Below are positions 21,130 through 40,422 of a stretch of DNA of 64,000 bases, one piece after another. The stretch covers positions 5,753 to 69,752 of the forward strand of contig CAZEAB010000001.1 in NCBI GenBank assembly GCA_964510085.1, given 5' to 3'. Every line of letters begins with the position of its first letter. The stretch's first letter is position 1. The position numbers and the translations under genes were made by a program. The notes under the pieces are model-generated. The model saw only the letters and a program-made list of their open reading frames with translations. It made no database searches and was not told where the DNA came from. This stretch comes from an uncultured Methanosarcinales archaeon (GTDB lineage: Archaea > Nanobdellota > Nanobdellia > Woesearchaeales > GW2011-AR9).

Positions 21130-21243
21130 AGTGGACAGCTTACCAATTTTCCCGCGAAACGCAGTACACATTGATACGGAAACGGTCTTAACTGCCAGGT
21201 TCGAGATGTGTCTGGGTGAACCCCGCCCCTATGGCCGTCCGAT
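21130..21243 (-). rRNA. rrf: 5S ribosomal RNA
   Basis: The minus strand reads GGACGGCCATAGGGGCGGGGTTCACCCAGACACATCTCGAACCTGGCAGTTAAGACCGTTTCCGTATCAATGTGTACTGCGTTTCGCGGGAAAATTGGTAAGCTGTCC. It carries archaeal 5S hallmarks (GGCCATAG, CATCTCGAAC, AGTTAAG, GTACTG, GGGAAA). Helix I is GGACGGC/GCTGTCC. It is followed by a T-run, ends are +/- 3 nt. Confidence 0.85.
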
Positions 21244-25822: not shown

Positions 25823-25913
25823 GCCTGTTATCGAGAATTGAACTCGAACTTCTAGAGGGCTGTATAGAAATAAATATCACAGTCTAGCGTGCTACCTTTA
25901 CACTATAACAAGC
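25823..25913 (-). tRNA. tRNA-His(GUG), AU-rich acceptor stem, 19-nt intron at 37/38, no encoded CCA
   Basis: Manual fold. G-1; acceptor CUUGUUA/UAACAGG (U2-G71); U8; D arm GUGU/GCAC with GG. Anticodon stem CUAGA/UCUAG, loop CU-GUG-A|intron|C. 4-nt variable loop. T arm UCGAG-UUCAAUU-CUCGA; C73. Intron segment TATACAG pairs with the anticodon loop. Confidence 0.75.
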
Positions 25914-26070: not shown

Positions 26071-26187
26071 TGGGGCGACCGCCGAGAATTGAACTCGGAT
26101 CTCAAGCTTTCCGCAGGAAAGTTCCAAAAGTTAATGGACTTTTGATATTCCACAGGCTTGAATACTAACCGTTATACCACGGTCGCC
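26071..26187 (-). tRNA. tRNA-His(GUG), GC-rich acceptor stem, 41-nt intron at 37/38, encoded CCA
   Basis: Manual fold. G-1; acceptor GCGACCG/CGGUCGC; U8; D loop AACGGUUA. Anticodon stem CAAGC/GCUUG, loop CU-GUG-G|intron|A. 4-nt variable loop. T arm CCGAG-UUCAAUU-CUCGG; C73-CCA, followed by a T5 run. Confidence 0.8.
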
Positions 26188-26227: not shown

Positions 26228-27655
26228 CTAAATCATCAATACTTTCTGACGTCTTCCCATAGTTACTTTAATTTTATGGGTATACCCTAAGAATTCTCCA
26301 GCAACTTGTAAAGGAAATTTGTTGTCGCATTCTATGATTAATTCGCTTGCTTTAAATGCTTTAAGAGGTGGTTTATACATACCAATTAAACCCATAAAGA
26401 AACTCATTAATCTCACAACTTTATTTGACCTCATTGAATGAACATTAATTGTAGCTAAACCAAGAAACTTTTTATCATCAGATTCTATAGATCCTAAAAG
26501 AGCACGCATTCCAAAACCCAAGTAAGGAATTTTACCTGCAGTTATTGTGACCACATTATCCCACTTTTGTTCTCTACCATCTATCTTTAATGAAAGGTCA
26601 TACCTAGATGGTTTTGATGCAAACATCTTTATTGTTGCAGAAACATAATCAGAAAAACCACCACCTACTGTTCGTTCTTGTTCATTAAATTTTACGACAT
26701 CAGCATCCATACCTAAACTAAGAAGGGTTGTTTCAACTGTACCTTTATCCCATTCTAAATTTAGTGCATCTAATTCAACTTCATCAAATGTAAATCTGTT
26801 CCTTAGATATTCGAACTTCTTACCTCGATAAAAATAGGAGTAAAACGCATTTCCAGCACCTAAAGGAAAGAATCCTAACGATTTATTATTGAAAATGGTA
26901 TGATTTAATGCAGCTTCAAAAGAACCATCTCCTCCTGCAATAATAACGTGGTCATACTCCTTAATCTTTGGACCAATTCCTGCAAACATATCTCCCTTCT
27001 TTGATAAAATAATTGTTTTTGCTTTTCTTTTTTTTGCAAATTTTCGTAATAACCGTCTTCGATATCTGTGTGCATATCCTCTCGATTTTGTATTTACTAA
27101 AATAACCATATTCTCATGTTCTACTTTTCTACCAGTTTTCCTTCTACGACGTAATTTCATTGTATAGACAAACGCATGATGAACGATTGATAGTACTGCC
27201 ATGACTGACGAGAAAAGTATGAAAATGATCTTCAAATTTGGGAAAACGAATAATGATAAATCAGTAAATAGAATACTAAATATAATCCCAAACTGTAAAT
27301 AAGTCATTACCTTGCTAAAGATATCAAACCTAACAATGGCATCATCTCGTGCTCCCATCCATTTAATCCACGTAACTACAATATCCCTTGCTACGAACAA
27401 TAAAAGAAATCCCCCATGAAATTCATTTTGTAAGTAAAATACCACCAGCAATCCAATGATAAATATTTTATGTGAGAACGGATCTAAGATTGACCGTATT
27501 TCACCTTTCTTATGAAGGTATTCATGAAGAAATTCTGATAGGAATGCAAGCACTAATAATGAAGTTGCTAACACAATTCTTCCTTGATTAAGGAAGTAAA
27601 TTATCACTGGTAATAGAAGAATCCTTACTATTGCGATTGTACTTGCTATACTCAT
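26228..27655 (-). CDS. Membrane-anchored lipid kinase: degenerate CDP-alcohol-phosphatidyltransferase-like N-domain + diacylglycerol-kinase catalytic (DAGK_cat/YegS-like) domain
   Basis: N-terminal TM region resembles PgsA-type proteins, but the DxxDGxxAR..D motif reads 'SEFLHEYLHKK...LDPFSHK'. The C-terminal half carries 'VIIAGGDGSFEAAL' (GGDG lipid-kinase signature). Confidence 0.6.
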   Translation of the reverse strand: MSIASTIAIVRILLLPVIIYFLNQGRIVLATSLLVLAFLSEFLHEYLHKKGEIRSILDPFSHKIFIIGLLVVFYLQNEFHGGFLLLFVARDIVVTWIKWMGARDDAIVRFDIFSKVMTYLQFGIIFSILFTDLSLFVFPNLKIIFILFSSVMAVLSIVHHAFVYTMKLRRRRKTGRKVEHENMVILVNTKSRGYAHRYRRRLLRKFAKKRKAKTIILSKKGDMFAGIGPKIKEYDHVIIAGGDGSFEAALNHTIFNNKSLGFFPLGAGNAFYSYFYRGKKFEYLRNRFTFDEVELDALNLEWDKGTVETTLLSLGMDADVVKFNEQERTVGGGFSDYVSATIKMFASKPSRYDLSLKIDGREQKWDNVVTITAGKIPYLGFGMRALLGSIESDDKKFLGLATINVHSMRSNKVVRLMSFFMGLIGMYKPPLKAFKASELIIECDNKFPLQVAGEFLGYTHKIKVTMGRRQKVLMI

Positions 27656-27694
27656 TTATGTAAAAAAGACGATTTTGTTTAAAAAACCTACCAC

Positions 27695-29236
27695 TCATTT
27701 CTTCCCAGCCAGTATAACATCATCTATCCGAAGAATCATTTCTGCGACATCTGTTGCTGATGTTAATGCCTGCGTTTTTACCTTCAACGGTTCCAAGATT
27801 CCTTTAGACCAAGCATCTATCATCTCTCCTGTAAAGACATCTATACCTATCCAAGACTTTTCAGAATGTGCTGAACGTAACTTTGTTATTACATCTATTG
27901 GATCTAATCCACCATTCTCTGCGAGAGTTCGAGGAATCATTTCTAATGTCTCTGCATATGCTTCTACAGCTAATTGCTCTCTTCCAGACAAACTACGTGC
28001 ATACAAACGTAACCCTTTTGCTACTTCCATTTCTACAGAACCTGCACCTGCAACTATCTTTCCATCTTTAATTGCAGATGAAACATCTCCAAGAGCGTCT
28101 GTTACAGCTCTTTTAATCTCCTCAGCAACATGTTCTGTACTTCCATTTAATAACAAGGTAACAGCTTTTGGGTTTGAACATTGTTCAATAAGAACCATTT
28201 CTTCTTCAGCGATTTTAACTTGCCTTACCATCCCAGCTTTTCCTAAATCACTAGCAGTAACTTCCTTCCAATTATTCACAATCTTTCCACCAGTTGCTCT
28301 TGCTAATCTTTCCATGTCACTTTTCTTGATACGTCTACACGCCATTATTCCCATTTTTGAAAGGAAATGTTGAGCTAGTTCATCTATACCCTTCTGAGAA
28401 CATACTACTCTCGCACCAGTTGATGCAATTGTATCAACCATCTGTCGTAACGATTTTTCTTCCTGTTCCAAAAATTGATTTAATTGAGAAGGGTCTGTGA
28501 TTTGTATCTTAGCATCTATTTCAGTATTTCGAATTTCTAAAGGCGAATTTAATAATACGATTGAAGCATGTTCAACAGAAGTAGGCATTTCTGGATGTAC
28601 CCGTTCTTTATCTAATACAATTCCCTCAACTAGTTGATGAGAACCTTCTCCAACAACGTACTCTACTTTAATGTCATCTAATTCAATATTTCGTTGTAAT
28701 GCTTTTACTACCAATTCAGCTAATGGCCCTTTACGAACTTCTGTTCCTTTTCCGGTCATTGCCGTCATTGCAATGTTTTGTAATAATTGCGTATCTTGAG
28801 AAGAAACTGGTTGTGCTAATGAACGCAAAATTCTCTGTGCTTCTGCTTCAGCTAACCTATAGCCTTTTGCAAGTACGGTTGGGTGAATTTTTTGATCTAA
28901 CAATAATTCTGCTTTCGTAAGCAATTCACCTGCAATAATAACTGCAGTAGTAGTTCCGTCACCTACCGCTGTTTCTTGCGTCTTTGCAACTTCTACCACC
29001 ATTTTCGCTGCAGGATGTTCTATATGCATTTCATTAAGGATAGTCACACCATCATTTGTAACAGTCACATCTCCTGCAGAATCTACTAACATTTTATCCA
29101 TTCCTTTAGGGCCAAGAGTAGTACGAACTGTTTGCGCTACAGCCTTCGCAGCCATTATGTTATTTCGTTGAGCGTCTTTCCCTGTTTCCCTCTTCGTATC
29201 TTCAGGAAGGATATAGATTGGTTGTGGTTCTGACAT
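27695..29236 (-). CDS. thsA: Thermosome subunit (group II chaperonin)
   Basis: '[13 protein letters not shown]', '[11 protein letters not shown]', '[10 protein letters not shown]', '[10 protein letters not shown]'. Confidence 0.95.
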
Positions 29237-31190: not shown

Positions 31191-32699
31191 TTATCCAAAA
31201 TAACTTCCATCCATTTCAAACGATTCCTTCTCAATCTTAGCATACTCCTTAAACAAGGGTATCTTAATCGGAACAGCAAACCGAGTAAAAGTACTAGAAA
31301 CTAACGCTTCACCTTTATCCAGCGATGCTATATTACGATTATCTGCACTTAAATCTTGTGGTGCTGATTCAATAATGGCTTGCCGTTCTGTATTCATTTC
31401 CATTCCTAAAATAATCTTCGTATTCATATTTGCTAAAATGTTCTTAGGAATTTCTGAAGGAATCTGTGTAATGGCAATTAACCCAACTTTAAACTTTCTA
31501 CCTTCTCGTGCTATGGAATCAAACACATTACTGCCTCTCTCCAACACTTTCTTACCCAATACTCGGGGGGCTTCTTCTAATACAACACTTACCACAGGTT
31601 TTTCATCTAACTGACCAATTCTTTTGTAATATTTATACTTATCAAAAATTTCTCCCGTAATTAAACTGCCAACTAAAACTTCAACAGCTCCAGAAAAGAA
31701 ACTAGTATCAATAATTACAATTTTACCCTCTTCTAAATCCTTACAAATATTTGAAATAGTATTCTCTCCAGCAATTGTATCAAATATTCCCGTACATTGC
31801 ATCTGCCCGTTTACAAAATCTAAACCTAATAAACCAATCAACTTTCTCTTCACAACAGCTAGTGTATCTTCATGGAATCGAACATTCTCTATTTTCTCTT
31901 CTCGTAATAACGCATCTATCCACTCTTCTCCAAATTTCTTGTAATAAACATGAAAACATTGACGTTGTGGGTCTGATAACGAAATAGCGCCAGCAAAATG
32001 TTCCGGTTTTAATCTCCGAACATTTATTTTCAAGCTCATAGCACCAGGAGGTGGATTAACAGGAGTATAATATCTAACATTTTCTTTCTTAAGATGGTCC
32101 TTCAACCCAAATCCCGTACGACCATAATATTCGTCATGAGGATCTAATACTAACATGCCAGTATAATTTTTATCAATCAAATTCCATAAAATACAACTCA
32201 TTAAATTACTCTTTCCTTTTCCAGTAGATGCTGGAATTAATACGTGATGACTTAATACTTCCTTCCCTGGAATAAAAATGTCGAAATCCATTTCCTTACT
32301 TCCACTTCGTAACTTTCCTAAATAAAAAGGATCTTGAGGTTTTGTAATAAATGCTAAATCTTCCTTTGTAATTTCCCGTACTTTTCTGAAGAATCCTGGT
32401 AATTTCTTACATGTTTTATTACCTTTCAAGTTTAAGATTGGTTTTAGAAACGCCAATTGATAATTACGTAAAGAAGAATCCATTATAGAGAAATCTCCTT
32501 CCTCAAGATTCATTCCAGCAACCATCTCCAGATTTTGAGAAGATATTTGACTCCCATATTCAAGGTCATACACTTGCAGAATGAATTTGTCTTGATTATC
32601 TTCAATAACAACTAACTCTCCCAGTTCAATACTATTTTCTTGCTTTACTCGCATGACAATCTTACTAAAATCTCCCGCAACTACTTGGCCTTTAATCAT
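31191..32699 (-). CDS. HerA/DUF87-type P-loop ATPase
   Basis: N-terminal barrel-like domain, Walker A '[11 protein letters not shown]', Walker B '[11 protein letters not shown]', 'VVLEEAP', '[11 protein letters not shown]'. Confidence 0.75.
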
Positions 32700-32775: not shown

Positions 32776-33529
32776 ATGAGAACAGATCAAGAACAACTTG
32801 AAATTTACAGACAAATTGCGAAGGAAACATGGAGAAGTCCAGAAACATTTGTGTTACATTTAGGTAAATTTGGACATTTCTGGTATCCCGGACATAAAGG
32901 AAGGAAATTTACTGATGAAGATCACCCTCACTTTGGAAAATGTTTAGGTGGTATTACAGATCCTGGTGGAAGAATTTATTTTTGGAGATGATTCCCCAGA
33001 AAGAGAAGAAGCACGAGCAAATCTTGCAAAGGAGTATAAAATTCATTTAATGCCTCAACCAGAGTATACCTTTGCAGTGACAAGAAGAATATGTGAACAT
33101 TTGCGAGATGATTCAACGTTAAATGATGCAGTTGCGGGTTTTAAAGTCAAATTAAATCCTGACACAATTCAACATGGTGACCAAGTACTTCCAGTCGTTG
33201 TCATATATTCAATGTTAGGGAGAGATAATGCACAAGTAGTATTAGACAGAATATATCATGCATTCCCAGAACATAGAAGAATTGGGCGAAATGTAACACC
33301 GCGAGATAACAGACGGATTAATAATTTGATATATTGGGCTCAATCAGGTGGAGATTTAAAACATAAGTATCGTGGATTTAAGAAAAGAAACACACAATTT
33401 TCTGATACAGGAAGCCATTTTCGAGGCGAGGAAAATAGATTACGACATCCTGGAACAAAAGCAGAATGGTTAGTCCAAACCATTGTTGGGAGAATGTCAA
33501 GTGTATTTGCACAAACTTCACCAGAATAG
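32776..33529 (+). pseudogene. Hypothetical about 250-aa protein split by a +1 frameshift in a T5 run (32979-32983); weakly HopA1/phospholyase-like
   Basis: ORF 32776..32991 ends '..GGRIYFWR*'. ORF 32948..33529 continues as '..IFGDDSPEREE..'. Removing one T joins them as '..GGRIYFGDDSPE..'. Composition is less AT-rich than the neighbours. Confidence 0.5.
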
Positions 33530-33579: not shown

Positions 33580-33849
33580 ATGTTCAATAAGAAAATTGAC
33601 TTATTTCTAATGGGGTTGGTTTACTCAATAATTTTAGGATCATTAGTTTATATTTGGAAAGATTATAGAGATTTGTTTCTTTTTTTACAAATTATAACTC
33701 TTCCTGCAATATATTACATTGGTTATGAAATTTTAATGGAAAAGCAAAAGAAAAATTTTAAGAGTGGTTATAATAAAGTTAAAAAAGAGTTACAAATAAT
33801 TAATTTAAAACAAGAGTTATTGAAAGAAAAAACCAAAAAAATTAAATAA
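33580..33849 (+). CDS. Small membrane protein (2 TM + K-rich tail)
   Basis: Two hydrophobic helices followed by a lysine-rich helix; no recognisable motif. Confidence 0.4.
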   Translation: MFNKKIDLFLMGLVYSIILGSLVYIWKDYRDLFLFLQIITLPAIYYIGYEILMEKQKKNFKSGYNKVKKELQIINLKQELLKEKTKKIK

Positions 33850-34041: not shown

Positions 34042-34299
34042 ATGAGTGAAGCAATCGTAATGCATTTCAGGCAAGGACGCCACCATGTTAATCCACATCA
34101 GATGATTCTAAAGGTAGCAGATACACCAGAAGAAGCTGAAAAAACTATTGGGAAAACTGTAACATGGACTTCTCCTGCTGGAAAAGTTATTACAGGTAAA
34201 ATTTCTGCTTTACATGGCCGAAAAGGTAATGTTCGAGCAATTTTCGCTGAAAAAGGTTTGCCTGGACAAGCTCTTGGCAAAAAAGTTACAGTTAATTAA
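34042..34299 (+). CDS. rpl35ae: Ribosomal protein eL33 (L35Ae)
   Basis: 'GKISALHGRKGNVRAIFAEKGLPGQALGKKV' is characteristic of the L35Ae C-terminus; 85 aa. Confidence 0.8.
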   Translation: MSEAIVMHFRQGRHHVNPHQMILKVADTPEEAEKTIGKTVTWTSPAGKVITGKISALHGRKGNVRAIFAEKGLPGQALGKKVTVN

Positions 34300-34358
34300 T
34301 TGTTTTTTATAGTGCATAAACTTATATACCTTAATTCTTTTTCTACAAGTGGTAATAG

Positions 34359-35984
34359 ATGGCAAAAAAGAGCCAAACGATATTCATCGTCCTAGTAGTA
34401 CTAGCAGTAATTGCAGTGGGAGCTCTCCAAATAAAGAACTTACCAAGCGGAGAACTACAAACTTTGCTCAATCTTGCTTCTTCAGGAACATTCTGGATAA
34501 ACTTTGCAATTATTGGAGTTTTAGCTTACGCATTTGCTAATTTCATACCACCATTAAACAAGAATAAAGAAACGAAGACGCAAGTAATAATTGGGATTAT
34601 TGTTGTTGGTTTTTCATTATTTATGGCATATTACCTTGGAAAATCTGAACCAAGCACGCTTGTATATAATTCTCAACACGTGAAATGGATTTTATTTGAT
34701 AGTAACGGAGATTTCACAATAAAACAGATTGCAAATATAGCATTCTTCTGGGGATTGTTTACAATTGCGGGTCCGTTTTTCTTTGACAAATTAAAACAAC
34801 TTAAAGATCAATCAAACGGAACGACAAATCTTGTATTTATAATTGTCATGATTGGATTAAGTATAGGAATGGCATCAAATATAGCACCAAATGCATTCTG
34901 GGAAGAACCTACATTTCTTGAAGCAGAACATTATTTGCTTGGAGCAAGACAAAGTGGTGCATTTCTAGGACATTCTGGGACATATACTGATGATGGAAAA
35001 ACAAAATTTGGAATTCTGTATCCAATGAAGATTACTGTAACAGAAAAAGGATTTTTTACTGATAGCACAAGTACCACAAGACCTATTGGAACATTCTTCT
35101 TAGGCCTTATTTCATTTGGTCTCATTTTTATGTTCATTAGTGCAAAATTTAACCTTGGAAATATGGGTGGGTTTCAAAAATTTGTTATTACCGTTGTTGC
35201 TGCAGAGTATGCAAATACAGGTTCGTCCTTTGGATTACTTTTCTGGATGGTGTGGTTAGGGATTGCGCTATCTGTGGGATTTGCTATTCAGAAATCTATC
35301 AAGATAAAATTAATAGCAACATGGGTTGGTTTAATGGCTGCAGACTTTGCATTTGAATTAATTCCATTTGATCTTGGAGTTGGATGGATTCCCCCAATAT
35401 TCCCAGAAAATCTTATTGCAAAGGCAGTCGTTTCGTTTATTGTAGCAATGGTTCTTACCGTTGCAATGGACACAGCAAAGTTTGGATATAAAGCAATAGC
35501 TAAAATTAGAATTTGTAAAGAATGTGGTCAGAAGGTTGAGAACAGAAAAATTAATGGTAAGTATGTTTGTTCTAAATGTAGTTATGAATGTCAAACATGT
35601 GGAGAAAGAGGAACATTACAAGTAACGCAAGGAAGAATTTGTGTTAATAGCAATTGTAACTTACATGGAAAAAATGTAAATCAAGCAACATGTCCTACGT
35701 GTGGTGTAGCAACGACACAACAAAATCAAGAACGTATTTGGTGTAACAAATGTAATAAGGCCATTATCAATGACATTGAAACAACCGAAGTAGAAGGGTT
35801 AGAAGTACTTGGAGCACAATGGGGAATGAAACTAGGTCCGGCAGCAGCAAGTGGAATTGTAAAAGGGGCGAAAAGTGCTGGAGGATTTTTTAAGAAGAAA
35901 GCTGCAAGTTTATGGAGTAAATTAAGAAAGAATAAAAATGCGCAAAGTGATGCTCTTACTAATATGCGGGGTGGTGTTGCATGA
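34359..35984 (+). CDS. Polytopic membrane protein with C-terminal cluster of zinc-ribbon (CxxC) motifs
   Basis: About 9 hydrophobic segments, then 'CKECG..CSKCSYECQTCG..CVNSNCNLHG..CPTCG..WCNKCNK' and a K-rich tail. Confidence 0.6.
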   Translation: MAKKSQTIFIVLVVLAVIAVGALQIKNLPSGELQTLLNLASSGTFWINFAIIGVLAYAFANFIPPLNKNKETKTQVIIGIIVVGFSLFMAYYLGKSEPSTLVYNSQHVKWILFDSNGDFTIKQIANIAFFWGLFTIAGPFFFDKLKQLKDQSNGTTNLVFIIVMIGLSIGMASNIAPNAFWEEPTFLEAEHYLLGARQSGAFLGHSGTYTDDGKTKFGILYPMKITVTEKGFFTDSTSTTRPIGTFFLGLISFGLIFMFISAKFNLGNMGGFQKFVITVVAAEYANTGSSFGLLFWMVWLGIALSVGFAIQKSIKIKLIATWVGLMAADFAFELIPFDLGVGWIPPIFPENLIAKAVVSFIVAMVLTVAMDTAKFGYKAIAKIRICKECGQKVENRKINGKYVCSKCSYECQTCGERGTLQVTQGRICVNSNCNLHGKNVNQATCPTCGVATTQQNQERIWCNKCNKAIINDIETTEVEGLEVLGAQWGMKLGPAAASGIVKGAKSAGGFFKKKAASLWSKLRKNKNAQSDALTNMRGGVA

Positions 35985-37219
35985 ACATCCCTGTAATATT
36001 AGAAAATGCAAAAGTACTTCAAACAGATATACAAAATAAAATTGACATTATCATCAACGAAACAGATAACGCAAGTGATATCCTATCACGATTACCAAAT
36101 AGAGAAGCGGATTATTTCCGTGGATTTAAGAAAGCAAGTCCTGAAGAACCAAATCCAACTCTCGCAAAAGCACGATATGCAGTAAATTTCAAACATTACC
36201 TGACAGAATTACTTCAAGGATTAGAAGATGATCCAGAGCAATGGATTCTTTCTTTTGAAAAAAATCAAGAGACTATTGGGAACATTATCAAAGAAAACGG
36301 GAAAATTGCTCCAATATTCTGGAAGAAAGTTAATTTACCAAAGATGAAAGCATTAGTTGCCGATATAACTGCGTTAGAAGATGCTCTTGAAAGTGCACAA
36401 CGAGCGGGAACACAATCAGCATTAGAAAAAGCAATAGAACCCGCTCTTGCAATAATCAAGGATATTAAAATTAGATCTGATTTACATCTTACAACAAAAC
36501 AACATGAAGAAGAGATTGCATTGTTTACAAACTTGTATAATCAATTAGCTGTTCTTGTACAACAATATAGAGATCCAAACACACCTGGACAACCAGAACA
36601 AGAAGTGTCTAAGATTAAAAAATATATGCGAGATGAACTTCCTTCTCAATTACAAGAATATGGTGATGAGGAATTACCAGGAAAATTAAAGAATTTCTTC
36701 AAGAAAAGTAAGAAAGTTCCATTATTACGTCCAGCTCCAATGTTAGCATTTGTAGAACGAGCATTACAATACTTAAAACAAGAAAATACAACACAATCTC
36801 GGTTTACTAAAACTCGAGAGAAGATTGTTGCCAAGATTCAATCTCATTTTAATGATAAAAAGAAAGATTTTACAAAAGAAATTGATAGATTACGAAGGTC
36901 TATTAGGTCTGTTATTAACATTGTAACAGAATTTGAAAACGTTGCGCATGATACTCTTGAAGCAACTATGAATAAAGATGAAATCATTGCCCATTTGTTA
37001 GAAAATTATTTTCATTGTTTGGAACTTATTTCAAAAATATCTGATGAATGTGCTAATGAGGGGAGATCCGAAGTTGTTCTTGCAGCCATTGCACAATATG
37101 AAAAATTAATAAAAGAACAAGATACACTAATTAAACAAGGTGAAAAAATAGATTCAGTAATTGGAACGTGGACAACAATTGCTGTTAAGAAATTAGAAAA
37201 AGTGAGGTTGCGTGCATGA
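35981..37219 (+). CDS. Hypothetical all-helical soluble protein
   Basis: ATGA overlap with the upstream gene; charged, helical composition; no recognisable motif. Confidence 0.55.
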   Translation: MNIPVILENAKVLQTDIQNKIDIIINETDNASDILSRLPNREADYFRGFKKASPEEPNPTLAKARYAVNFKHYLTELLQGLEDDPEQWILSFEKNQETIGNIIKENGKIAPIFWKKVNLPKMKALVADITALEDALESAQRAGTQSALEKAIEPALAIIKDIKIRSDLHLTTKQHEEEIALFTNLYNQLAVLVQQYRDPNTPGQPEQEVSKIKKYMRDELPSQLQEYGDEELPGKLKNFFKKSKKVPLLRPAPMLAFVERALQYLKQENTTQSRFTKTREKIVAKIQSHFNDKKKDFTKEIDRLRRSIRSVINIVTEFENVAHDTLEATMNKDEIIAHLLENYFHCLELISKISDECANEGRSEVVLAAIAQYEKLIKEQDTLIKQGEKIDSVIGTWTTIAVKKLEKVRLRA

Positions 37220-38514
37220 ACATTAAAAAAATTCTAAGTATATTACTATTATTCACCCTACTTAGTTTTTCTGTAACCGCTGATTTTGGAGACATCTTAA
37301 CTTCTGTGCAGAATGCATCAACTGGTCTTGATTTATATGATGATCACAAAGAAGCAATTGATATTGGTTTATTATTCCTATTTTTTACATCATTTTTCTG
37401 GGTAGGATTTCAACGTATGTTTAAAGATGCACAACAACAAAGTGGTGTAAAAGTTATGGCATTAGTGTTAGGAATCAGTTTTGCACTATCTTCATTTGTG
37501 GCAGGAATTAGTCCGTTATCTCCTGGACCGTTTATGAAAGCCTTCTTCTTTTTGTTTTTAACTGGAGCCATCTGGTGGATGTTAGTTAAAGTTTTCAAAG
37601 TTGAGAGTAGATGGGGACGTTTTTGGATGTTACCTATTGCGGGTTTATTAGCTCTCTTATTAGTCGCGGCTGTTGACAGCACTCTATTAGATGATGCACA
37701 CGATTTCCCTGGAAAAGAATATGTGGATAGAGCAATTGATTGGGTGAAAGATGTATGGAATAAGGCAGCTAGTTCTGTTCCTTCATTACCAGTAATTCCT
37801 ACTGACCAAGACGATGATGAGGGTGGTGTTGGTTTACCTGATGATCCAACATCCACAGATGGCGAAGGAGATGTAGAAGAAGCTGGTGGATATAGTTTTG
37901 TTTTACTAATACTCGGAATACTTGCTATTGTTCTTGTTATGGTGATTGTTGCAAGAAAGGCCATAGCCAGTAGACGTGGAAGACCTGCACCACCAAGTTC
38001 ACCTCCTTCTGAACCTCCGAGTACTCCTCCTAGTTCGCCCCCTAGCTCTCCGCCGCCACCTGATGAACCTTCTAGACCAACTCCTACTCCTGATAGACCA
38101 ATTGTAGCTGAAACTCCATCTACAACAACTGCTCGTGAAGCTGTAAGACGTGCAGAAGAACCAGTTAGAGAATATGAAGAACGTGCTGCTGAGATTGAAA
38201 GGACCGGTCCATCAAAAGAAACAATGTGGAGTGATGAAGCAAAAGAAGATAGAAAAGCAAGAGCTAAAGAAAGGAAGAAAAGAGAAAGAAAAAAAGGTCG
38301 TGGAACAAGATTTAAAGCAAATTTATTAGGAAAATCAAAACCCAAGAAAGGAATATTCTCAAAATTAAAATTTTGGGAGAAGGATGACGATGAAGAAGAT
38401 AGGCCTTCATTCTCTGAATCAAGAGCACATTTCAAAAAATTATCTGACCCGGTAGAAATGAAAAGAGTACAAGAATTCGATGCATTCGAAGATAACTTGC
38501 GGAGATTACCATGA
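37216..38514 (+). CDS. Membrane protein with acidic loop, Pro/Ser-rich linker and K/R/E-rich tail
   Basis: Signal-like N-terminus, 4-5 TM, 'DQDDDEGG..DGEGDVEE', another TM, 'PPSSPPSEPPSTPPSSPPSSPPPPDEPSRPTPTPDRP', then 'KERKKRERKKGRG'. ATGA overlap on both sides. Confidence 0.6.
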   Translation: MNIKKILSILLLFTLLSFSVTADFGDILTSVQNASTGLDLYDDHKEAIDIGLLFLFFTSFFWVGFQRMFKDAQQQSGVKVMALVLGISFALSSFVAGISPLSPGPFMKAFFFLFLTGAIWWMLVKVFKVESRWGRFWMLPIAGLLALLLVAAVDSTLLDDAHDFPGKEYVDRAIDWVKDVWNKAASSVPSLPVIPTDQDDDEGGVGLPDDPTSTDGEGDVEEAGGYSFVLLILGILAIVLVMVIVARKAIASRRGRPAPPSSPPSEPPSTPPSSPPSSPPPPDEPSRPTPTPDRPIVAETPSTTTAREAVRRAEEPVREYEERAAEIERTGPSKETMWSDEAKEDRKARAKERKKRERKKGRGTRFKANLLGKSKPKKGIFSKLKFWEKDDDEEDRPSFSESRAHFKKLSDPVEMKRVQEFDAFEDNLRRLP

Positions 38515-39872
38515 GCGAAGAGCCAACAAAAAAGTTTCCTGCAAAACATATGCTAGAACTACATTATGTTGTAAAAAGAAAACATTTCCATAGAATTGAA
38601 GAGATTGCATCAGATTATGAAGACGAATTAGCTTCAATTGGTTTAACTCCAGCACAATATGTTACATTAGTTAAAGAATACAAAGCATGGCATGATGGCA
38701 TGATTAGACATTTGCCTAGTTTAATTGACTATTTTGAAAGGAATAACTTTAACCCATTCGAAGATGAAAGAGGGTTTGAAATATCAAACGTCCAAATATT
38801 ATCGTGGCTTCATGCATTACAGAATAAAATTAGAGACGGAAGTGACCCAAATACATATGAAAAATTGATGAAAAAAGTACAAGAGTTTTTAGATAATTAT
38901 GAAAAACACCTTTATTCACTTCCAATGGCAGAAGAGCCAAAAGAAGATAAGGAGATGGAAGAGTATTGGAAGAGAGTACATGATGTCTTGGGCAAAGATT
39001 ATCCATCTTATGAATTAAAAGAAGTAGATACTGTAGAAGAAGCATTACAAGGGTTACAAAGTCTAATTAATGCCCTATTAAATCCACTATGGTTAGAAGC
39101 ACTTCCAGTTCTTCAAGAATTTGAACAGAATTTAGTTGTTCACATTCCAAGAATGGAAGCACCCATAAATTGGACACAAACATACATCACAAGCGTTATT
39201 AGAAAATTAGATGGGTTAATCGACGAGAATACCACTAAGAGTGCAATGTTATTATTTCATTCCTGGTATGCCCAACTTAGCTGGATAATAAAGTATGACG
39301 ATATTTTCAACAAAGAGTTTGAAGGTTATATGGGGATTAGTGAAATGTACAATCAAATCGGATTAGTTTCTGACCACCTGAATTACGCTCCAGATTATGA
39401 AAGAACAGTAGAAGGATTACGTGCATTATTACATTATATTGGTGAAGTGAAGAAACAAAAAACAATTGAAGAAACAGAAGAGTACAAGAGAGTTGTTGCA
39501 TTAGCAAAAGAAACAGAAATAATTGATACTCAACAAATACATGAGTTTTTCAACATTAGTATTGGAGATCAGTTTTCAGCAATGGGTTATTTTGAAGCAC
39601 TAGTTAAAAATAAGATTTTAATTGAAATTAGGAGAGACCAATTTAGTGCTATTGGTTCTACTAAAGCAGTGAAAGATACTAACTTATACGCACAAGCTGT
39701 TGCCATTTATGAAAAAGATAAAAAACAAAAGGAAAAATCATACCAAGGAGACTATTCTGGAATTAGTAGTTACCAACTTACTAAATTAGATATTCCTTAT
39801 CAAATAAAAGACATTCTTTTAGAAGAACTTGAAAGAAATGGAATGAAAGTTCAAGCTAAAAGCCAATTTTAA
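38511..39872 (+). CDS. Hypothetical helical soluble protein
   Basis: ATGA overlap with the upstream gene; 453 aa; no recognisable motif. Confidence 0.55.
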   Translation: MSEEPTKKFPAKHMLELHYVVKRKHFHRIEEIASDYEDELASIGLTPAQYVTLVKEYKAWHDGMIRHLPSLIDYFERNNFNPFEDERGFEISNVQILSWLHALQNKIRDGSDPNTYEKLMKKVQEFLDNYEKHLYSLPMAEEPKEDKEMEEYWKRVHDVLGKDYPSYELKEVDTVEEALQGLQSLINALLNPLWLEALPVLQEFEQNLVVHIPRMEAPINWTQTYITSVIRKLDGLIDENTTKSAMLLFHSWYAQLSWIIKYDDIFNKEFEGYMGISEMYNQIGLVSDHLNYAPDYERTVEGLRALLHYIGEVKKQKTIEETEEYKRVVALAKETEIIDTQQIHEFFNISIGDQFSAMGYFEALVKNKILIEIRRDQFSAIGSTKAVKDTNLYAQAVAIYEKDKKQKEKSYQGDYSGISSYQLTKLDIPYQIKDILLEELERNGMKVQAKSQF

Positions 39873-39888
39873 ATAAATACCAAGAAGT

Positions 39889-40422
39889 CTAAAGAGTTTC
39901 CAAATATTTCAAAAAATCAATGTACTTCTCCTCTTCTACTTCAGTACCCCAAACCATTCTAAGAATGTAATCAATATCTTTGACAGTTGCATCTGCCTTA
40001 GCACGAGCACCTGCGTTATCCTTTGCTTTAAACAGCTTTTTAGCTTCATCAATATCTTGCCGTAACTTTCCTCTTGATCGAGATAATCCTTTAACAAGTG
40101 TATTCAAACCTACATGAATTTTTGTATCAATATCCTTTAAGACTTTTACTAATTTAGCTGGAAGACAACTTTCTAATTCTTTAATATCTTCTTCTTCTTT
40201 CTTTTCTTCACGATTAACATATCGTTCAGTTCTTCCAAGACTTCGACGAACTATCTTCTCTTCGTGTTTCAAGTCTTTTTCTGCTTTATCAAATAAACCG
40301 TGGTCTAAATCATAAATTTCTTTGAGAACTTCTTTCTTCAAATCATCTAGATATTTACTCTCAGCAGCTAATTGACCTAATAGCTTCTCTGCGTGAGCTT
40401 GCATATCTTTTATCTCAGTCAT
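39889..40422 (-). CDS. Hypothetical coiled-coil protein
   Basis: 177 aa, heptad-like K/E-rich composition; convergent with the four-gene operon. Confidence 0.5.
   Translation of the reverse strand: MTEIKDMQAHAEKLLGQLAAESKYLDDLKKEVLKEIYDLDHGLFDKAEKDLKHEEKIVRRSLGRTERYVNREEKKEEEDIKELESCLPAKLVKVLKDIDTKIHVGLNTLVKGLSRSRGKLRQDIDEAKKLFKAKDNAGARAKADATVKDIDYILRMVWGTEVEEEKYIDFLKYLETL

Follow-up and report, generated by a model that had tools for sequence, protein, structure and literature searches.

A cluster of five genes in an archaeal genome fragment, four of them an operon of overlapping reading frames (g1 to g4) and the fifth a convergent gene for a helical protein (cc), constitutes a conserved module of Woesearchaeota that may, on a tentative reading, mediate surface contact with partner cells. 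The fragment (hereafter the window) is a 64,000-nucleotide (nt) stretch of contig CAZEAB010000001.1 (assembly GCA_964510085.1, positions 5,753 to 69,752), deposited as an uncultured Methanosarcinales archaeon and placed by GTDB in the Woesearchaeales. Comparison of gene order among genomes shows that g1 to g4 and cc are a vertically conserved, lineage-restricted Woesearchaeota module fixed between the ribosomal protein genes eL33 and eS19, and that the membrane pair g1 and g3 is its invariant core. An earlier interpretation made from the letters alone (the sequence-only reading) had described the operon as a candidate envelope-associated machine with nucleic-acid- or protein-binding parts, possibly linked to a nearby HerA ATPase.

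Homologous loci, numbered with the prefix L, fall into two types. Type 1 context was read in the window, L001, L003, L002, L025, L026, L027, L031, and L033, in the short L034, where the order is partial, and in L024, which is too short to inform. The genes in type 1 loci follow the order eL33, g1, g2, g3, and then variable helical or Cys-rich genes, with the convergent cc and eS19 downstream where the contig reaches. Occurrence was counted with hidden Markov models (HMMs) built in this analysis. The genes for g1 and for the N-terminal anchor domain of g3 (g3N) occur together in all 12 loci with readable downstream context, type 2 included. All type 1 loci have g2, and cc is found in seven of the eight complete ones (the window, L001, L003, L002, L025, L031, and L033). 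The N-terminal module of g4 (g4N) occurs in seven loci, in one to three copies. Loci that lack g1 contain no member of the g1, g2, g3N, g4N, or cc HMM families. Type 1 order is kept down to g1 identities of about 21% to 28%; between L002 and the window, for example, HerA is 77% identical, g1 24%, g2 21%, and cc 38%. Such conservation of order across divergent genomes, combined with co-occurrence, is the pattern expected of an operon-encoded complex. Since synteny is kept across this deep divergence, the genes are not singletons of one lineage, and the conservation across related Woesearchaeota that the sequence-only reading had proposed to look for is present. That reading had treated cc as a flanking gene, but its co-occurrence with the operon places it within the set.

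The four open reading frames (ORFs) lie on the plus strand from 34359 to 39872 (Table 1) and overlap by 4 nt (ATGA) at each of the three junctions, g1/g2, g2/g3, and g3/g4. The sequence confirms this layout as it had been described earlier, with g1 starting 59 nt after the end of eL33 (PF01247, ending at 34299) and a convergent gene following g4. Motifs resembling Shine-Dalgarno sites stand 5 to 12 nt ahead of the starts of g2 (ggggtggtg), g3 (gtgaggt), and g4 (gcggag), and the operon probably has its own promoter and ribosome-binding site in the interval after eL33. A scan of the window for bacterial promoters and terminators was uninformative for an archaeon. The coding fraction of the window is 93% and overlap is common there (18 of 46 same-strand neighbour pairs, 39%), yet three ATGA junctions in a row are unusual: exact 4-nt overlaps occur in six of the 46 pairs, and three of these six are inside g1-g4. 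Tight junctions are seen again in homologous loci. The ratios of nonsynonymous to synonymous substitution rates (dN/dS) against the L001 orthologues are 0.17 for g1, 0.08 for g2, 0.21 for g3, 0.35 for g4, and 0.07 for cc, indicating that all five are under purifying selection and therefore real genes. Flanking housekeeping genes have values of 0.03 to 0.07 in the same comparison, and the g1, g3, and g4 proteins evolve three to eight times faster than their neighbours. The GC content of the cluster (0.34 to 0.35) is the same as that of its flanks, and no paralogues of the g1-g4 or cc families were found elsewhere in the window.

The g3 protein consists of a conserved anchor with a variable extracellular slot. 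Its architecture, which the sequence-only reading gave as a signal peptide, four to five transmembrane (TM) segments, an acidic loop, a further TM segment, a linker rich in Pro and Ser, and a K/R/E tail, is borne out by sequence and composition, with four TM segments ahead of the loop. Identity to L001 is 23% in the linker and 89% in the C-terminal helix. At the slot position, where the window has a stretch of 72 acidic residues, homologues carry large variable ectodomains. The slot is filled by about 300 residues of acidic low complexity in L033, by Cys-rich repeats in L026, L027, and L031, and by a Cys-rich region of about 1000 residues in L025 that includes a PAN domain (PAN_1, 45.8 bits against a cut-off of 21.4). 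The L002 protein has an OmpA-like segment there that remains sub-threshold (17.1 bits against a cut-off of 27.2), and the L028 protein has a glucosaminidase domain (56.4 bits against a cut-off of 30.2). An alignment of ten g3N sequences was too divergent for pattern building, and a scan of metagenome contigs with g3N matched one 1.7-kb contig.

The other half of the membrane pair, g1, was modelled with AlphaFold2 (AF2) from a 20-sequence alignment, at a predicted local distance difference test score (pLDDT) of 71.7 and a predicted template-modelling score (pTM) of 0.46; an earlier run on three sequences had given a pLDDT of 39 and was useless. The model contains 10 TM helices, a loop between TM5 and TM6, a beta-rich ribbon region, and a disordered tail, so that the polytopic nature proposed earlier holds and the count of about nine TM segments does not. 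The positive-inside rule predicts that both termini are inside the cell and that the TM5-TM6 loop faces outwards. Asn residues are conserved within the TM helices (N48, N126, N157, and N286), and the loop has invariant or near-invariant positions in alignments A1 and A6 (W181, E183, E190, G195, R197, H205, G207, Y209, and G218-I-L). On the cytoplasmic side, three predicted zinc ribbons use C386/389/404/407, C411/414/428/433, and C445/448/462/465. These form six Cys pairs, five CxxC and one CxxxxC, and all 12 Cys are invariant in the four-sequence alignment A1. The AF2 model places the region in beta strands (pLDDT 68 to 87). Residues 381-478 thus have two knuckles per unit, conserved and on beta hairpins, as expected of Cys4 ribbons, and the array of at least four CxxC pairs in the sequence-only reading is upheld as a zinc-ribbon array whose exact content is six pairs in three Cys4 units. 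None of the ribbons matches a curated zinc-ribbon family above threshold; the weak matches are DUF7573 (E 0.046), RpoM-2 in the PDB (E 0.037), and Zn_Ribbon_TF in two of 20 g1 family members (best E 0.0028). Distant relatives of g1 have two ribbons or none, and in type 2 they have helical tails instead. Because the number of ribbons varies and helical tails replace them, a part in interactions seems to suit the cytoplasmic tail of g1 better than one in catalysis or DNA binding, and no evidence was found for the nucleic-acid-binding parts suggested earlier. The basic tail is predicted to be disordered (pLDDT < 50) and is 52% identical between the window and L001, compared with 87% for TM1-5.

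The remaining products, g2, g4, and cc, have no predicted TM segments, are poor in Pro and Gly, and are rich in E, K, Q, L, A, and R. This composition suggests that g2 and g4 are helical, and all three may serve as helical scaffolds. The N-terminus of g2 aligns with a small ORF that lies separately before g2 in some other loci; the window, L001, and L003 have the two fused. The cc protein is helical, has an invariant GRTERY motif, and is 92% identical to its L001 orthologue. Beyond the window, g4N is present in L001, L002 (twice), L026 (in two genes), L031, and L033, and weakly in L025. The C-terminus of g4 is 29% identical between the window and L001, with 16 gaps, and in L003 g4 is replaced by an unassigned 142-residue gene. 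A C-terminal domain of about 180 residues is common to the g4 proteins of L001 (629 residues, L001:14066-15955) and L033 (971 residues, L033:13698-16613), running from '..AIRAIDPKG..ELWD..' to '..KVVVSK'; the window g4 is without it. A C-terminal winged helix-turn-helix (wHTH) had been proposed for g4 from the letters. The proposal finds no backing, with no Pfam HTH family at E<=1, no PDB sequence match, and only the 29% identity to L001 in the segment concerned. The idea of an FtsK-gamma-like wHTH was dropped because no profile supports it. The Snf7, PspA_IM30, and CdvA profiles do not match g2, g4, or cc at E<=1, and hhalign detects no relationship among g2, cc, and g4N.

The orphan status that the sequence-only reading claimed for these proteins withstands profile searches. 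None of g1-g4 and cc reaches a curated threshold in Pfam or NCBIfam, and sequence and profile searches of the PDB give no credible match for g1, g2, g4, or cc. PHROGs contains no match for the cluster proteins. The set has no credible PADLOC match either, the best scoring 18 to 21 bits on helical or low-complexity stretches; strong PADLOC matches come from HerA alone, outside the operon. No match turned up to known families such as S-layer or ABC components, which had been named beforehand as a possible outcome. A g1 profile run against 1.84 billion representative proteins recovers 25 relatives at E<=1e-3, of which 11 reach E<=1e-30. When g1 and g2 were used as queries in word-indexed homology searches, close relatives and one distant relative were the only matches, and close homologues, where their sources name them, are called 'hypothetical protein'. 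The 20 g1 family members show no recurrent Pfam match beyond weak zinc-ribbon signals. Foldseek finds no match to the g1 model in the PDB (best E 0.24, TM-score about 0.1) or in BFVD. A scan of metagenome contigs with g1 gave no match, and a search with a concatenated g1+g2+g3N+g4+cc alignment returned nothing. Two specific candidates were also dropped: exosortase/archaeosortase-type sorting, since g3 has its TM segment plus basic cluster away from the C-terminus and no exosortase was matched, and a MotAB-like stator, since there is no match and the OmpA-like segment is present in one homologue only.

To see what occupies this position in other genomes, HerA was used as an anchor for a scan of one genome per species, which gave 21 loci, nearly all from metagenome-assembled genomes (MAGs) of Woesearchaeota or Nanoarchaeota. 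Five of the loci (L003, L005, L006, L011, and L021) are titled 'uncultured Methanosarcinales archaeon'. They have SPP-HerA-eL33 synteny and HerA 62% to 78% identical to Woesearchaeota/Nanoarchaeota MAGs, and because both features match those MAGs, the bins are probably mislabelled. In the scanned genomes SPP, HerA, and eL33 are neighbours, followed by a variable interval of 1.3 to 5.6 kb and then by eS19, eL31, and Cbf5. The g1 cluster fills this interval in some genomes only. Where it is absent (L004-L008, L010, L011, L013, L014, L016, and L017), the interval is occupied by gene pairs, one to three in tandem, on the other strand from eL33. One member of each pair is a 5-TM protein of about 180 residues with a signal peptide or lipobox, and the other is a 1-TM protein of 210 to 290 residues with a K/E-rich helical region; some g1-less loci have fused forms of 390 to 466 residues. 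These two families, with 24 and 12 members in the fetched loci, have no Pfam match. With hhalign, a distant relationship is detected between the g3 anchor and the 5-TM family (probability 89%, E 2.3e-6, 105 columns), and none between the 1-TM family and g2, cc, or g4N. A HerA tree (single gene, no support values) places the operon-bearing genomes in two groups, with a g1-less group beside one of them, which is compatible with cassette replacement at the eL33-eS19 locus.

Type 2 clusters begin with an AAA ATPase (PF01637/AAA_16-like, 37% to 51% identical among the three clusters) that overlaps a g1-like gene by 4 nt, followed by a soluble protein of 378 to 546 residues and, further downstream, a g3N-type gene. 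The g1-like protein has no zinc ribbons and a helical tail end. The cluster adjoins eL33 in L028 and L030. In phmmer searches, g2, g4, cc, and the g3 tail have no match among type 2 cluster proteins.

The HerA gene lies upstream of eL33 in all type 1 loci for which the contig extends that far. HerA identity among the genome-scan loci is 71% to 79% while that of g1 falls to 24%, and the two therefore do not co-evolve. Because HerA adjoins eL33 with or without the operon in the Woesearchaeal loci examined, its link to the operon is positional only, and the co-occurrence raised by the sequence-only reading extends to genomes where the operon is absent. No NurA-like gene was seen in the interval. 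The HerA ORF at L019:7922-11032 is 1036 residues long, with the match to window HerA (residues 164-502) confined to its C-terminal part; it may contain an insertion (intein?) or be a fusion.

Table 1 Features of the g1-g4/cc locus in the window, with the type 2 clusters of related genomes; residues refer to the encoded protein
Feature	Coordinates	Strand	Description
HerA	31191-32699	-	PF01935, 92 bits; 1.66 kb upstream of g1
eL33-g1 intergenic	34300-34358	+	A/T-rich; TATA-like ttttttata and cttatata; GGTG-like motif just before ATG
g1	34359-35984	+	541 residues; polytopic membrane protein and founding member of a tiny orphan family
g1 TM5-TM6 loop, residues 176-241	34884-35081	+	Conserved; modelled as one helix and four beta strands
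g1 zinc ribbons, residues 381-478	35499-35792	+	Three predicted Cys4 ribbons, then conserved motif DIETxEVEGLE
g1 basic tail, residues 479-541	35793-35981	+	Ala/Gly/Lys-rich; net charge +9
g2	35981-37219	+	412 residues; soluble, no predicted TM segment
g2 residues 1-63	35981-36169	+	Match a separate 35-50-residue ORF of other loci
g3	37216-38514	+	432 residues
g3 residues 1-153 (g3N)	37216-37674	+	Anchor domain: signal peptide, conserved 24-residue outside segment, 4-TM bundle
g3 residues 154-225	37675-37890	+	72-residue acidic loop, 20 D/E and 4 K/R; predicted outside
g3 residues 226-432	37891-38514	+	Last TM segment, P/S-rich linker, K/R/E cytoplasmic tail, conserved C-terminal helix (396-432)
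g4	38511-39872	+	453 residues; acidic, soluble; C-terminus poorly conserved
g4N module, about residues 1-130	38511-38900	+	Related clusters have one to three copies, in their variable helical genes
cc	39889-40422	-	177 residues; convergent with g4
Type 2 cluster, L028	L028:8901-14004		
Type 2 cluster, L029	L029:6838-14169		
Type 2 cluster, L030	L030:5314-11474		

Several observations concern the surroundings of the locus. At 32776-33529 on the plus strand, a single gene is split into ORFs of 71 and 193 residues by a +1 frameshift near 32966 (ggtggaAgaattt); its intact counterparts have 255 residues in L001 and 256 in L003, with no Pfam match, and the split may reflect loss of gene function, an error of assembly (indel), or programmed frameshifting. 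An 89-residue single-TM ORF at 33580-33849 is missing from L001. Conversely, L001 has a 523-residue gene with a faint Pribosyltran match (L001:2268-3839, minus strand) between a CDP-alcohol phosphatidyltransferase/DAGK gene and Cpn60, and in the window, around 27655-27695, the DAGK/CDP-alcohol phosphatidyltransferase gene adjoins Cpn60 with no counterpart between them. Rfam identifies two tRNA genes on the minus strand, at 25823-25912 (90 nt) and 26074-26186 (113 nt), which from their length probably both contain introns. ARAGORN found only the first and gave it a 4-base anticodon. The minus strand also has a 5S rRNA gene, at 21130-21242.

We tentatively favour the view that the module is a surface complex with which the cell makes contact with, or attaches to, a partner or host, perhaps in combination with uptake. 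This is ranked the most likely explanation because of the ectodomains of g3 homologues, the patchy, cassette-like distribution, the predicted symbiotic lifestyle, and the proposal that Woesearchaeota and Pacearchaeota use extracellular murein-degrading proteins to attach to the walls of bacteria (PMC8204110). The operon structure, the purifying selection on all five genes together with the faster evolution of g1, g3, and g4, the exchange of zinc ribbons for helical tails in g1, the co-occurrence of the genes, the fusion and fission of the small ORF with g2, and the topology predicted by the positive-inside rule are further support, as is the g3N fold shared by the sister-lineage cassettes at the same locus. 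Of the envelope-associated machine put forward by the sequence-only reading, the envelope or surface role is strengthened by the PAN and glucosaminidase domains of g3 homologues, and the HerA link, the wHTH, and nucleic-acid binding gain no support.

In such a contact complex, the five products would assemble into one membrane-embedded structure, presumably with stoichiometric expression. The g3 protein would display a lineage-specific surface module, which may be a PAN/Cys-rich adhesin-like domain, a wall-binding or wall-cutting domain, or, in the window, an acidic loop. The conserved membrane core would be g1, which might offer a path for binding or translocation. On the cytoplasmic side, a helical scaffold made up of g2, g4, and cc would be present that docks on the ribbon/DIETxEVEGLE tail of g1 and on the C-terminal helix of g3.

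Several points count against surface contact. The g3 of the window has no adhesion, wall-binding, or hydrolase domain recognised by Pfam, only the 72-residue acidic outside loop, and the PAN, glucosaminidase, and OmpA data come from only three g3 homologues, one of them sub-threshold. The divergence between the window and L001 sits in linkers and cytoplasmic tails rather than in outward-facing parts, and for this reason it is not the pattern expected of a surface arms race. The lack of a fold match for g1 is weak negative evidence, because the pTM of the model is only 0.46. To our knowledge, no Woesearchaeon is in culture. A bolder form of the same idea, which we consider doubtful, is that the module is a new envelope-spanning contact/uptake machine of a Woesearchaeota clade and the physical basis of host attachment and feeding in these symbionts. 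The g1 protein would then be a new-fold core or translocator, g3 the carrier of an exchangeable 'warhead' that binds or cuts the partner wall, and g2, g4, and cc a cytoplasmic helical scaffold; the 5-TM/1-TM pairs and the type 2 clusters with their ATPase would be other forms of this device.

Biogenesis or maintenance of the cell's own envelope is an unlikely alternative to surface contact. A surface glycan or lipid would in that case be handled by g1 as a novel transporter, flippase, or polymerase, g3 would be part of a surface layer or serve as an anchor, and the helical proteins would act in assembly. The polar TM residues of g1 and its predicted outward loop with E/E/R/H/Y resemble the periplasm-facing active sites of polytopic enzymes, the chromosomal position among ribosomal-protein genes is fixed, and the acidic or Cys-rich ectodomains could be wall components. 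However, the 20 g1 members have no Pfam match to Wzy, WaaL, GT-C, MurJ, or flippases, g1 has none in NCBIfam, and Foldseek does not connect the model (pTM 0.46) to solved polytopic enzymes, with TM-scores of about 0.1. The module is absent from close Woesearchaeota with other cassettes, which is unexpected for a core envelope function, and the glucosaminidase and PAN domains point outwards, to foreign surfaces.

It is improbable that the genes are simply neighbours in a compact genome, with overlaps that reflect compaction, and not parts of one machine. On this view g1 and g3 would be membrane proteins independent of each other, and g2, g4, and cc cytoplasmic proteins without a connection. This explanation draws on the 39% of same-strand pairs that overlap in the window and on the high variability of g4 and its replacement in L003 by the 142-residue gene. 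It does not account well for order and co-occurrence kept to about 21% to 28% g1 identity, for g1-g3 pairing in type 2 as well, for the absence of all the families from g1-less sister loci, or for a small ORF that some loci have as part of g2 and others as a reading frame of its own.

A similarly low probability is given to a conflict system, that is, virus defence or exclusion or contact-dependent antagonism, in which the ectodomain would serve as decoy, receptor, or weapon. Close relatives carry alternative cassettes in the eL33-eS19 interval, a variable island, and evolution is fast in g1, g3, and g4. Many defence systems resemble the type 2 clusters in starting with an AAA ATPase, and one g3 homologue has a glucosaminidase. 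Nevertheless, there is no credible PADLOC match, and no nuclease, toxin, or abortive-infection domain was found. The dN/dS values are well below 1, with divergence concentrated in disordered linkers, and the stable position and gene order are unlike those of typical mobile defence islands.

A role in division, membrane remodelling, or chromosome-membrane tethering together with HerA, with DNA bound through the ribbons, the basic tails, and the g4 wHTH, is very unlikely, even though HerA lies 1.66 kb upstream in the window and upstream of eL33 in type 1 loci, and both g1 and g3 have basic tails. HerA, SPP, and eL33 are adjacent also in operon-less Woesearchaeota, and HerA (71% to 79% identical) shows no co-evolution with g1 (down to 24%). 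Pfam and NCBIfam give no wHTH, ESCRT, PspA, Cdv, or FtsK-gamma match, close relatives share 29% identity in the putative wHTH segment, and the ribbons are dispensable in distant members. The patchy presence of the module argues against a core cell-cycle role. The remnant of an integrated virus or mobile element, which orphan genes at a variable locus might suggest, is extremely improbable given the absence of PHROG matches, of relatives on IMG/VR contigs, of Foldseek matches in BFVD, of an integrase, and of a flanking tRNA, the GC content like that of the surroundings, and genes that keep their place on the chromosome and stay under purifying selection across deep divergence.

Woesearchaeota are an abundant group of uncultured archaea. 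The module provides concrete candidates for how DPANN archaea beyond the few cultured Nano- and Nanohaloarchaeota may attach to and exploit their partners, with exchangeable extracellular domains of g3 homologues that include a peptidoglycan hydrolase and PAN. Even if the contact reading is wrong, g1 is a well-defined new polytopic family whose predicted fold matches no solved structure, and the eL33-eS19 interval emerges as a hotspot of cassette exchange for membrane proteins. By comparative inference alone, the module is a well-delimited candidate for the surface biology of Woesearchaeota.

The nearest analogies to the module are functional, not homologous. In MotA/MotB and TolQ/TolR-Pal, a multi-TM protein works with a membrane partner anchored in the cell wall. 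The likeness lies in a multi-TM protein co-encoded with a partner able to carry an OmpA-like domain (in L002 only); there is no sequence or fold similarity, the numbers and topology of TM segments differ, and the OmpA-like match is sub-threshold and confined to one homologue. SPEARE-type giant surface proteins of Nanohaloarchaeota, for which host contact through variable extracellular modules has been proposed, are single polypeptides with protease and nuclease domains and are, as far as we know, DPANN-specific and without homologues elsewhere. The module is, in contrast, a multi-gene system with a small conserved membrane core and putative cytoplasmic helical partners. The previously undescribed 5-TM/1-TM pairs, whose 5-TM member is a distant homologue of the g3 anchor, occupy the same slot and are alike in having a signal peptide or lipobox, a TM bundle, a TM helix, and a charged cytoplasmic helical region. 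They differ in lying on the strand opposite eL33, often in tandem, without g1, g2, g4, cc, or a large ectodomain. From the same lineage come the murein-degrading proteins of Castelle et al. 2021 (PMC8204110), which are also surface-exposed and carry domains that target the bacterial wall, comparable to the glucosaminidase of the L028 g3 and the OmpA-like segment of the L002 g3. What defines those proteins, which are large and secreted or extracellular, is a murein transglycosylase domain, whereas the wall-targeting domain of the module is an optional insert, absent from the window g3, in a 4-TM anchor paired with g1. The module, none of whose components was assigned by the searches made to a described family beyond generic zinc ribbons, is by homology and gene content a new kind of system.

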